Shown here: positions 2,876 to 5,647 of the stretch, piece after piece | Numbering within the stretch: the first letter of the stretch is position 1 | Layout of the letters: every line of letters starts with the position of its first letter | IMG/VR virus record: IMGVR_UViG_2778261453_000008 | From: a virus | Lineage: Duplodnaviria; Heunggongvirae; Uroviricota; Caudoviricetes | Strand: one strand, 5' to 3' | Length of the DNA: 6,252 bases | The notes under the pieces: model-generated | The model's database searches: none | What the model saw: the letters and a program-made list of their open reading frames with translations, nothing else | What the model was told of the DNA's origin: nothing | Made by a program: the position numbers and the translations under genes

Positions 2876-3301
2876 TTAGTGCATCACCACAGCATTCCCT
2901 GCAGGGCCGCCGCGATTCATCTGGTCATACAAAACAACCGCTGACGCAACAAAATCATCGACATCCTTCACCAGCCGATCCCTCCGTTCGACGATCTCAC
3001 GGTAATATTCAGAACTGTGGCTGCGCATACGGGCCACCAGCAAAGGCGGCATCGCCTTTTCGATTGCCGGTAACAGAGCCTGCATTTTTTCAACAGCATC
3101 AGGGGTGTCTTTATCCAGCCAACGGAAAATTTTCTGGGTATTACGGGCCAGGGCTTCCGGATGGCTGTCGTCATACAGTTCCGGGAACGTCATTCCCAGT
3201 TCGAAATACGCTTTGGTAATTTTCGCAGCCGGTATTTTTTCGCCGTCCGGATGCGCCCAGGCATTCATCGCCATGCGGATGTGTTCATGCTTGATTTTCA
3301 T
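2876..3301 (-). CDS. ydaT: YdaT-like protein (Rac-type, toxic when derepressed)
   Basis: 141-aa ORF starting MKIKHEHI..., which matches my recollection of YdaT in length and N-terminus. ATG at 3301..3299 has an AGGAG SD (plus 3309..3313 reverse-complemented). It overlaps the end of the upstream ydaS-like gene by 17 nt. Confidence 0.8.
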   Translation of the reverse strand: MKIKHEHIRMAMNAWAHPDGEKIPAAKITKAYFELGMTFPELYDDSHPEALARNTQKIFRWLDKDTPDAVEKMQALLPAIEKAMPPLLVARMRSHSSEYYREIVERRDRLVKDVDDFVASAVVLYDQMNRGGPAGNAVVMH

Positions 3302-3566
3302 GAATCAAGCTCCTAGTAAGTGGTTGTGTTAACGTTTTGGTATCTTCCAGCTCGGGCCAAATATTCATCCAATCAAAAGGCCTTAGTTGCTGACGTGTAA
3401 CTTCACCATTACTGGCTCGCTCAATAAGGACACATAACGATGCCCCTAACATTTGACCTTTACTCAATGCCTTTCTTAGATAACCGATGCTAGTACCACA
3501 CTCACATGCAAACATACGCTGTTCATCTGACGAAAGAGAATTGAGAAATATTCTTAATTCTTCCAT
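3285..3566 (-). CDS. ydaS: YdaS-like Cro/CI-type HTH protein (Cro analogue of Rac-type prophages)
   Basis: 93-aa ORF with a C-terminal segment (...LCVLIERASNGEVTRQQLRPFDW...) typical of the YdaS family. ATG at 3566..3564 has an AAGGAG SD 5 nt upstream. It is divergent from the repressor gene and first in the replication operon. Confidence 0.8.
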   Translation of the reverse strand: MEELRIFLNSLSSDEQRMFACECGTSIGYLRKALSKGQMLGASLCVLIERASNGEVTRQQLRPFDWMNIWPELEDTKTLTQPLTRSLIHENQA

Positions 3567-3666
3567 AGCTACTCCTTAGTAAACACAGCAAAGGATACCT
3601 ACAGGTAAACAAAAGTCAATACCCTTGGGTTGTTTACCTTGCGGTAATCGCATCTATTATTTACCT
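3567..3666. promoter_or_regulatory. Divergent promoter/operator region between the ydaS-like and repressor genes
   Basis: Two palindromic sites of form (A/T)TACC-N4-GGTAA: O1 at 3595..3608 (ATACCtacaGGTAA) and O2 at 3634..3647 (TTACCttgcGGTAA), plus a half-site TTACC at 3661..3665 abutting the repressor ATG. Candidate minus-strand promoter for ydaS: -35 TTGACT (plus 3614..3619 reverse-complemented), 16-nt spacer, -10 TATCCT (plus 3592..3597 reverse-complemented), overlapping O1. Confidence 0.55.
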
Positions 3667-4086
3667 ATGGACAAATATGAATTTAGACGACAACAACTCA
3701 TCAAAATTCGTGATGAGAAATGCGATGGTAAAGCGGTTAACGTGGCCAGAAAGATCGGTCGCGAGCCTTCTTATGTATCAAGAATGTTGTACCCAGAGGG
3801 GAAAAAAGGAAAAAAACGGATCGCTGATGATATGGTGGAGATTATAGAAGAGTCCTTTGGGTTACCCCGGGGATGGATGGATGGTATCGTTTCATCATCA
3901 ACGAACACAGCCTCCAATTATGAAACAAGGGTTCTAACGCCACGACAACGTATTTTTTTAGATCTCTTAGACGAACTGCCAGAAAGTGAAGCGGATAACT
4001 TATTAAAAACTCTTGAAGAGAAAAAACAGTATTACAATATGATCTACGAAGAAATCCGTAAAAAGAAAGCACAAAACGCATCATAA
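3667..4086 (+). CDS. Prophage immunity repressor, RacR/DicA-like (N-terminal HTH, C-terminal ELPESE-type domain)
   Basis: 139-aa ORF from ATG 3667 (MDKYEFRRQQLIKIRDEK...KAVNVARKIGREPSYVSRM...). The C-terminal ...LDELPESEADNLLKTLEE... resembles DicA/RacR-type repressors. It is divergent from the cro-like ydaS and AT-rich. The track ORF begins at an upstream TTG (3625) with no SD, so ATG 3667 is preferred. Confidence 0.8.
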   Translation: MDKYEFRRQQLIKIRDEKCDGKAVNVARKIGREPSYVSRMLYPEGKKGKKRIADDMVEIIEESFGLPRGWMDGIVSSSTNTASNYETRVLTPRQRIFLDLLDELPESEADNLLKTLEEKKQYYNMIYEEIRKKKAQNAS

Positions 4087-4120
4087 CTCACCAAACAACC
4101 AGTCACCAGTCAAGATACAT

Positions 4121-4168
4121 CAAAAAAAAATTACCCGTGGGTATTTACTTTTTGAATACCCACGGGTA
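4121..4168 (-). terminator. Rho-independent terminator hairpin, canonical on the minus strand (possibly bidirectional)
   Basis: Perfect 14-bp inverted repeat, tacccgtgggtatt (4132..4145) and aatacccacgggta (4155..4168), with a 9-nt loop. Plus-strand A9 at 4122..4130 gives a U9 tract right after the stem on the minus strand. On the plus strand the stem is followed only by tccttcctttc, so it is weaker for the repressor transcript. Confidence 0.6.
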
Positions 4169-4354
4169 TCCTTCCTTTCATACCAACCCACCCCGTCCCA
4201 CAGAACGCAGGGCAATACCTAGAGTTACCCGGCAGTGGTCAGGGGTTAAGTAGCCAGCCCGAGGCGTATGAACATGACGGCGGGAACACTTTATATAACA
4301 GCGCAGCAGGTTTTTAGTTCCGCTACCCCGGCGTTAAGGGGAAATGAGGTCAAC

Positions 4355-4893: not shown

Positions 4894-5343
4894 TTTATTC
4901 ACGGGTGAGATAGAGTGCGTGCGCCGGACACGGGTGAGCATCCGGCACTGACAGTTTACTGAAAGGATATTTCCCTGAAAAGTCAGACCATAACGCGAAA
5001 GCGTACGGCGAGGTAGCTGGTTCATAGATAGCCTGTCGTTAAATTTTGACCGTGCGCTTCCGGTTGTGGCAATCCGCGAAATGGCGCGGCGGTAAGTATG
5101 GCGGGGTTATTCCTTCCCCGTTGAGGACACCGGGTTGTCAGGTTGACCATACGCTTAAGTGACAACCACGCTGCAACGCCCTCTGTTATCAATTTTCTGG
5201 TGACGTTTGGCGGTATCAGTTCTACTCCGTGACTGCTCTGCCGCCCTTTTTAAAGTGAATTTTGTGATGCGGTGAATGCGGCTAAGCGCACGCGGAACAG
5301 TTAAAACCAAAAACAGTGTTATGGGTGGGTTCTCTGTATCCGG

Positions 5344-5388: not shown

Positions 5389-5425
5389 GCATCAACAAAG
5401 TTCATTTGTAAAAATGGAGATAATT

Positions 5426-5647
5426 ATGATTGCTCATCACTTCGGAACTGATGAGATTCCTCGTCAGTGCGTGACTCCCGGTGATTATGTTATTCATAAA
5501 GGAAGAACATATATTGCTTCGGTAAACAACATTAAAAAACAACGGCTCTATATTCGTGATTTTTCCACACAACACTGTATTAAGGAAACCATGATTAAAG
5601 TCTTCCTTGGTCGTGATGGTTTACCTGTAAAAGCAGAGTCATGGTGA
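5426..5647 (+). CDS. kilR: KilR-like killing protein (Rac-type cell-division inhibitor)
   Basis: 73-aa [35 protein letters not shown]...[18 protein letters not shown], matching my recollection of Rac KilR in length and sequence character. GGAG SD at 5416..5419 with 6-nt spacer to ATG 5426. The track ORF starts 4 codons upstream at ATG 5414, which has no SD. Confidence 0.8.

Follow-up and report, generated by a model that had tools for sequence, protein, structure and literature searches.

Predicted operators of a lambda-type prophage immunity region with a DicA-tailed repressor

The immunity region and its predicted sites

The DNA considered here, called the window in the following, is a stretch of 6,252 nucleotides from a virus of the Caudoviricetes (IMG/VR record IMGVR_UViG_2778261453_000008). 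An intergenic region of 100 bp (3567-3666) separates a 93-aa gene on the minus strand from a divergent 139-aa gene on the plus strand, which are cro-like and repressor genes, respectively. The minus-strand operon consists of the cro-like gene and YdaT/CII-like, O-like, DnaC-like and DUF1627 genes, while the plus-strand operon downstream of the repressor gene contains a DUF1391 gene, a 128-aa ORF, DicF and kil. The features of these genes and operons that are used below are:

3285..3566, minus strand: cro-like (YdaS-family) gene, 93 aa, first gene of the operon predicted to be repressed; PF15943, phrog_35
3291..3308: YdaT-type operator, zero-mismatch match to TTGATT-N6-AATCAA, located where the cro-like gene ends and the ydaT-like gene begins
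3667..4086, plus strand: repressor gene, 139 aa; residues 1-75 are an XRE-fold HTH, residues ca 89-134 a DicA-like helical C-terminal domain
5195-5246, plus strand: DicF sRNA (Rfam RF00039, 72 bits)
5414-5647, plus strand: kil, septation inhibitor gene (family match)

The cro-like protein matches YdaS_toxin (PF15943) with E = 8.9e-6 and 25.9 bits, which is under the curated cut-off of 30, and K-12 YdaS in BLASTP with E = 9e-7 (39% over 44 aa). Judged by these scores, it is a distant YdaS relative. For the YdaT-like protein the match to YdaT_toxin (PF06254) has 40.9 bits at a cut-off of 21, and BLASTP against K-12 YdaT gives E = 1e-15 with 31% identity.

The palindrome TACC-N4-GGTA has four exact matches in the 6252-bp window, at 3596-3607, 3635-3646, 4132-4143 and 4157-4168, while 0.04 are expected and none of 200 shuffles reaches four. 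The existence of the sites and their significance are established by these counts. A scan with one mismatch adds 3620-3631 (TACCCTTGGGTT), located between the two intergenic palindromes. The predicted operators, named by analogy to those of lambda, and the predicted promoters are:

3596..3607: O1, OR1-like operator, TACCTACAGGTA, exact motif, over the −10 and spacer of the cro-side promoter
3620..3631: O2, OR2-like operator, TACCCTTGGGTT, one mismatch, abutting the −35 of both divergent promoters
3635..3646: O3, OR3-like operator, TACCTTGCGGTA, exact motif, over the −35 and spacer of the repressor promoter (called O2 in the earlier note)
4132..4143: OL1-like operator, TACCCGTGGGTA, exact motif, directly upstream of the PL-like −35
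4157..4168: OL2-like operator, TACCCACGGGTA, exact motif, over the PL-like spacer and −10
3592..3619, minus strand: PR-like promoter, TTGACT-16-TATCCT, from the consensus scan, predicted start at ca 3585; serves the cro-like/YdaT-like/replication operon
3633..3660, plus strand: PRM-like promoter, TTTACC-16-TATTAT, from the consensus scan, predicted start at the A of the ATG at 3667; serves the repressor gene
4144..4172, plus strand: PL-like promoter, TTTACT (4144-4149)-17-TATCCT (4167-4172), read from the sequence, predicted start at ca 4179

O1 and O2 are 24 bp apart and O2 and O3 15 bp, at offsets of −71 (O1), −47 (O2) and −32 (O3) from the repressor ATG. The distance between OL1 and OL2 is 25 bp, and that between OR and OL ca 540 bp. 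The repressor site is most likely a dyad of 12-14 bp with the consensus tTACC-YRYR-GGTAa, which the 139-aa repressor would bind as a dimer.

The earlier note on this DNA had described two TACC-N4-GGTA palindromes that share one dyad and have centres 39 bp apart, which are the present O1 and O3; they are exact in the sequence and the excess of the motif is significant. Its count of two operators plus a half-site has to be revised, however, since 3620-3631 was missed and there are three full intergenic operators. As for the half-site that it placed at the start codon, a TTACC is present at 3661-3665, but it is a 5-mer at chance level that is missing there in all relatives outside the E. coli lineage. 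It was rejected as an operator, its extension TACCTATGGACA having two arm mismatches; within the E. coli lineage it is invariant, but so is the whole of 3649-3666. We have also rejected the one-mismatch matches at 1801, 3207, 4216 and 5004, the number of which fits the chance expectation of 1.4; the match at 4216 has two further mismatches in strain AR_0085.

It is worth pointing out that the promoter consensus scan by itself does not exceed chance, with two promoters found where 2.1 are expected, and that the PL-like promoter is not called by this simple scan. The promoter calls are supported by the relatives, in which the hexamers are placed in the same way with respect to the operators: both the PR −35 (TTGAC, that is, gtcaa beside O2) and the −10 that starts in the last TA of O1 are found again there. 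The scan puts TTGACT-16-TATCCT at 3619..3592, so that O1 shares 2 nt with the PR-like −10 and spans most of the spacer, in agreement with the earlier note, which had placed it over the spacer and −10 of the cro-side promoter. The PL-like promoter is a near copy of the PR-like one, with the same layout and the same −10 (repeat I3), and the corresponding downstream position in phage mEp043 was annotated as "putative PL" by the depositors.

On the repressor side, the PRM-like −10 ends 6 nt ahead of the ATG, and a Shine-Dalgarno sequence is lacking, which suggests that the repressor mRNA is probably leaderless, as reported for the transcripts of lambda cI and paaR2 (PMC8630535). A TAnnnT hexamer is found 6-7 nt ahead of the repressor ATG in enterobacterial relatives as well, and the cro-like gene has an AAGGAG 6 nt ahead of its own ATG. 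With the start at 3667, the centre of O2 is at −41.5 and that of O1 at −65.5. A TTG at 3625 was considered as the repressor start and rejected, the homologues beginning at the conserved MDKYE.

Conservation of the sites and composition of the repressor

The sites were compared across 23 loci from a genome-wide scan with the 139-aa protein, each of which encodes a homologous DNA-binding domain. The loci come from Yersinia, Arsenophonus, Edwardsiella, Klebsiella, Brenneria, Leclercia, Aeromonas, Paraburkholderia, Herbaspirillum, Alcaligenes and Stenotrophomonas, and from one Hydrogenophilaceae MAG and one Xanthobacteraceae MAG. All three intergenic sites, at ca −72, −47 and −32 from the repressor ATG, are found in 17 of the 23 loci, which span Enterobacterales, Aeromonas, Burkholderiales, Xanthomonadales and Xanthobacteraceae, and also in phage mEp043. 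This positional conservation is established by the comparison.

Taken site by site, an exact O1 is present at −71 to −75 in 22/23 loci, and O1 is also found in 80/82 prophage copies from E. coli and in mEp043. O2, in the 17 loci scored for it, lies at ca −47/−48 (one at −50) and reads TACC-YRYR-GGT followed by T or C in 14 of them, the right arm being more degenerate in the other three; the last-base defect of this site is itself conserved across the scored loci. For O3, a site with at most two mismatches occurs at ca −32/−33 (one at −35) in 21/23 loci. The pair of downstream sites, 25-26 bp apart, is found in 12/23 loci besides the window, in mEp043 and in all 82 E. coli copies. In these 12 loci a −35-like hexamer comes right after the first site and a −10-like one starts in the last TA of the second. 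The 82 E. coli prophage copies, which are near-identical and total 416 kb, have exact matches at the four positions and, apart from three strays, nowhere else.

Across the loci the arms are invariant and the four central bases variable, with the YRYR pattern kept in O1 and O2. Fixed arms with variable centres are the mark of a dimeric protein-binding site and not of an RNA element. Polymorphism was also compared within the E. coli lineage. In 20 haplotypes of the region from −76 to −1, the operator centres are variable at 9 of their 12 positions, compared to 9 of the 64 others (Fisher p = 5e-5). In O1 and O2 none of the eight centre positions is constant, the N4 centre of O2 being as variable as that of O1 among these close relatives, whereas the centre of O3 is almost fixed. 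The simplest reading is that the centres would be contacted in a way that is not base-specific, while nearly all other bases of the switch would be constrained by a promoter or ribosome site. Alternatively, the polymorphism of the centres could be caused by affinity tuning, neutral change or templated mutation.

Some further observations on individual sites can be added. The changes in the O1 and O2 centres (3600-3603 and 3624-3627, loci L028-L107) are mostly transitions that preserve YRYR. The right arm of O3 (3643) reads AGTA, that is, TACCTTGCAGTA in place of ...GGTA, in 27/82 E. coli copies (L028-L107), and this common variant should, judging by the consensus, weaken the autoregulatory site. 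Five Klebsiella loci (L006, L008, L010-L012) have one site at −73 and another at −33, together with OL-type sites downstream, as a pair in four of them, but lack the middle site O2 as well as a nearby divergent cro-like gene. These loci appear to represent a module that is wired differently around the same DNA-binding domain.

Another possibility is that the Cro-like (YdaS-family) protein is the sole owner of the sites, with the 139-aa protein binding elsewhere. Homologues of the cro-like gene are indeed divergent to the repressor gene, and co-inherited with the sites, in 17/23 loci. However, the Klebsiella loci retain O1, O3 and the downstream sites in the absence of a nearby cro-like gene, and the sites can therefore be assigned primarily to the repressor. 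In lambda, CP-933P and Qin, moreover, both proteins share the operators (PMC8630535, PMC10448788), and shared use by the repressor and the Cro-like protein is thus to be expected here. Exclusive ownership by the Cro-like protein is, in our view, improbable.

The repressor itself has no match in Pfam: residues 1-76 give none at E ≤ 1, and Peptidase_S24 (PF00717) is absent. For comparison, the N-terminus of DicA matches HTH_3 at 1e-16. Residues 1 to ca 75 (MDKYE...LPRGWMDG) are common to many Peptidase_S24 proteins of 220-242 aa, including mEp043 cI, and most relatives of this DNA-binding domain, a family of 632 representative clusters at 50% identity, carry S24. Residues 89-134, on the other hand, match the C-terminus of DicA with 33% identity and E = 1e-7. 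These homologies are established, and by them the repressor is a domain hybrid in which a DNA-binding domain of the S24-type CI proteins is joined to a DicA-type tail. Since the S24 domain is absent from the hybrid, RecA-mediated cleavage is predicted to be absent as well. The sites co-occur with the DNA-binding domain of the repressor irrespective of whether the C-terminus is S24 or DicA-like.

The fold is that of an XRE HTH with a Rep/DicA-like C-terminal domain, although the sequence similarity to the Rep repressor of Salmonella phage SPC32H (PDB 5d50), which belongs to the antirepressor-controlled class, is low. No antirepressor gene was identified among the ORF families of the window. A separate observation concerns an A6GGA7 run in the repressor gene (ca 3802-3816), around which the frame switches in several database proteins (P0005, P0009, P0013, P0016 and P0019) that are frameshifted versions of the repressor. 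Many E. coli copies of the repressor may have been pseudogenised at this apparently slippery A-tract.

The downstream operator pair as a hairpin

The two exact operators past the repressor gene can also be read as the arms of a hairpin:

4132..4168, plus strand: OL hairpin, composed of OL1, OL2 and four flanking bases; 16-bp stem, −26 kcal/mol, terminator-like call

Between the stop codon (4086) and the OL pair no other terminator is found, and the sequence that follows the hairpin (TCCTTCCTTT) makes a weak U-tract. The pairing is kept in 99.2% of the cells in the 16 distinct haplotypes among the 82 E. coli copies, which are closely related sequences. Four central pairs are changed on both sides (CG to UA, AU to GC, UA to CG and GC to AU). 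The values for pairing and covariation are reached by at most 1 of 500 shuffles, and the covariation score is above all 500; the covariation of the hairpin is thus established. The cells that are not Watson-Crick pairs comprise 19 G·U against two others when read on the plus strand, an excess that fits an RNA stem within the repressor transcript.

On these grounds the repressor transcript of the E. coli lineage could end at the OL hairpin by intrinsic termination, which we regard as an evenly balanced proposition. A template-switch mutation in a quasi-palindrome could also yield the same complementarity, with no selection on the RNA. An A9 run precedes the hairpin and a T-rich tract follows it (4120-4129 and 4169-4178), and read on the minus strand this becomes a hairpin followed by T9. 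The hairpin could also be a bidirectional terminator, blocking antisense transcription into the repressor gene.

If termination does occur here, the OL element of ca 40 bp would possibly be three in one, combining two operators with the core of the PL-like promoter and with a terminator for the repressor's own transcript. By the compensatory substitutions the hairpin is kept while each arm remains a valid operator.

The question then is whether the palindromes could mainly be RNA or DNA hairpins, that is, terminators or attenuators, and not protein operators at all. The downstream pair, with its 16-bp stem of −26 kcal/mol and its compensatory changes in the E. coli lineage, would agree with this. 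The three intergenic sites, however, are upstream of both predicted starts and have neither mutual complementarity nor covariation. A hairpin between O1 and O3, which came out of the repeat analysis, was rejected for this reason, the centre of O1 being variable and that of O3 fixed. Distant taxa keep the arms of the downstream pair, but the complementarity of its centres is not kept, only 0-3 of the 4 centre positions being complementary at these loci. The sites also track one DNA-binding domain family. A primary role as hairpins is consequently very improbable, and hairpin formation by the OL pair is best seen as an additional function, specific to one lineage.

Known systems and proposed mechanism

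In phage lambda the operators are 17 bp long, the O2-O3 spacing is 23 bp and there are three OL sites. The spacing of lambda OR1 and OR2, and the positions of OR2 and OR1 upstream of the repressor start, match the 24 bp, −41.5 and −65.5 of the window. The two regions are further alike in having divergent repressor and cro genes, three intergenic operators over both promoters, a repressor mRNA that here is probably leaderless, and operators reused on a second outward promoter past the repressor gene. The differences are that here the dyad is 12-14 bp, O2 and O3 are 15 bp apart, there are two OL sites, the distance from OR to OL is only ca 540 bp, the OL pair doubles as a hairpin and the repressor is without an S24 self-cleavage domain. 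This last difference bears on the protein family of lambda CI and not on the layout of the switch.

Another close system is the functional lambdoid phage mEp043 (NC_019706). Its cI has a DNA-binding domain that is 65% identical to that of the repressor over residues 1-86, its three operators are at the same offsets, its two-site OL lies on the annotated PL and its cro-like gene is homologous. In contrast to the window, its cI is a protein of 228 aa with Peptidase_S24, and would thus presumably be cleaved in the SOS response, an N antiterminator gene is driven from its PL, and a separate canonical terminator of its own is present ahead of OL. A lambda-like nutL (CGCTCTTAA ... GCCCTGAA) is seen downstream of its PL and before the N gene (L027, 3640-3700). 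The PL operon of the window lacks an N gene and any obvious nut site, which means that the two share immunity but not antitermination. The NC_019706 record has no operators annotated, and no paper describing them was found in the literature searched; a search for the mEp043 operators and for the motif string gave nothing relevant within the literature collection that it covered.

The DicA/DicC/dicBp module of Qin resembles the window in its short repressor without S24, in the homologous C-terminal domain of that repressor, and in having DicF, a DUF1391 gene and an inhibitor of division under the control of a downstream promoter. The N-terminus of DicA, however, is a standard HTH_3 and the operators are unrelated in sequence, TACC-N4-GGTA being absent from the DicA intergenic region. 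Between the Cro-like proteins of the window and Qin there is no detectable similarity (E = 0.04). As the downstream operon here contains DUF1391, DicF and Kil, the PL-like promoter can be viewed as the counterpart of dicBp in Qin (PMC10448788).

CP-933P (PaaR2/YdaS/YdaT) and Rac have YdaS-like and YdaT-like genes opposite the repressor, as here, and in CP-933P the PRM, PR and PL analogues have been shown experimentally (PMC8630535). YdaT of CP-933P footprints a TTGATT-N6-AATCAA motif at the end of the cro-like gene (PMC9986795), the same place as the exact match in the window, which suggests by analogy that a PRE-like control of establishment could operate here too. The operators of CP-933P, compared by their published sequence, are instead palindromes of the GTTTAGTAA type (PMC8630535). 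The window also differs in having no toxin-antitoxin pair after the repressor gene and, with respect to Rac, in a repressor that is unrelated to RacR.

The proposal that the region is the RacR/YdaS/YdaT module of Rac, in which RacR binds the palindromes and its loss derepresses toxic ydaS/ydaT, agrees with the gene order (the repressor facing ydaS-like, ydaT-like and replication genes) and with a YdaT_toxin score over its cut-off, but it is refuted by comparison of the sequences: BLASTP of the repressor against K-12 RacR gives E = 2.3, that is, no homology, the footprinted RacR operator (T/A)TAGGC-n3-GCCTA(T/A) (PMC9638921) is not matched anywhere in the window at up to two mismatches, and the relatives of the repressor are mEp043 cI for the N-terminus and DicA for the C-terminus. 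The chance that the Rac reading holds is negligible, and functional analogy alone remains. This is where the earlier note was wrong, as it had taken the repressor to be RacR; the "established Rac biology" that it invoked applies only by analogy. Its observation was otherwise largely right. The compact switch of the lambda OR type is borne out by the divergent repressor and cro-like genes and by an operator on the cro-side promoter, and the operon that it supposed to be repressed does contain YdaS-like, YdaT-like, O-like and DnaC-like genes. Its logic is thus correct, while its number of sites is incomplete and its simple switch model omits the OL/PL analogue, with two exact operators past the repressor gene.

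With these comparisons in hand, we consider it very probable that the sites form the operator set of a lambda-type prophage OR/OL immunity region, in which the 139-aa repressor is predicted to bind all five. What follows is the mechanism that we infer for this region, as regards the binding protein, the order in which the sites are filled, activation, the starts of transcription and termination. Repressor bound at O1 and O2 would turn off the minus-strand promoter and silence the operon of cro-like, YdaT(CII)-like, O-like and DnaC-like genes. The centre of O2 would be ca 41.5 bp upstream of the leaderless start, a position like that of lambda OR2, and repressor synthesis could perhaps also be stimulated from there. 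Negative autoregulation, and shut-off by the Cro-like protein, would likely take place at O3, which covers the −35 and spacer of the PRM-like promoter. As O2 and O3 are only 15 bp apart, compared to 23 bp in lambda, their joint occupancy or cooperativity may differ.

At the other end of the repressor gene, OL1 and OL2 would cover the second promoter, and the same repressor would there repress the DUF1391-DicF-Kil operon. Since this operon is driven by the PL-like promoter, the repressor would probably silence inhibitors of cell division, much like DicA at dicBp. The OL pair, in the hairpin form that it has in the E. coli lineage, would in addition be the probable end of the repressor transcript.

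The lambda layout as such is already known, also in neighbouring YdaS/YdaT prophages, and the OR/OL/PL logic has been demonstrated by experiment in CP-933P, Rac and Qin (PMC8630535, PMC9638921, PMC10448788). What is new is the predicted operator sequence, together with its proposed assignment to a DNA-binding domain family without a Pfam model; no description of the operators of the TACC-N4-GGTA immunity type was found in the literature searched. Also new are the swap of S24 and DicA-type tails on constant operators and the possible overlap of operator, promoter and terminator at OL.

Most of the region is present in 822 of 5,426 complete E. coli genomes. The present operator map, with five sites, three promoters and predicted starts, applies to an immunity type that is found in hundreds of E. 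coli genomes and in mEp043, and it corrects the "RacR" label. The occurrence of S24 and DicA-like tails on the same operators amounts to a natural experiment, in which the mode of induction has been swapped and the specificity of immunity left unchanged. As the specificity is common to SOS-cleavable (S24) and non-cleavable DicA-type repressors, an effect of cryptic prophages on inducible phages is conceivable. The joint reading, with OL as a three-in-one element and with S24 and DicA-type repressors on one specificity leading to uninducible immunity, is a tentative one that we consider less likely than not. If it is true, a cryptic prophage could provide uninducible immunity against inducible phages of the mEp043 type, or lock them down.
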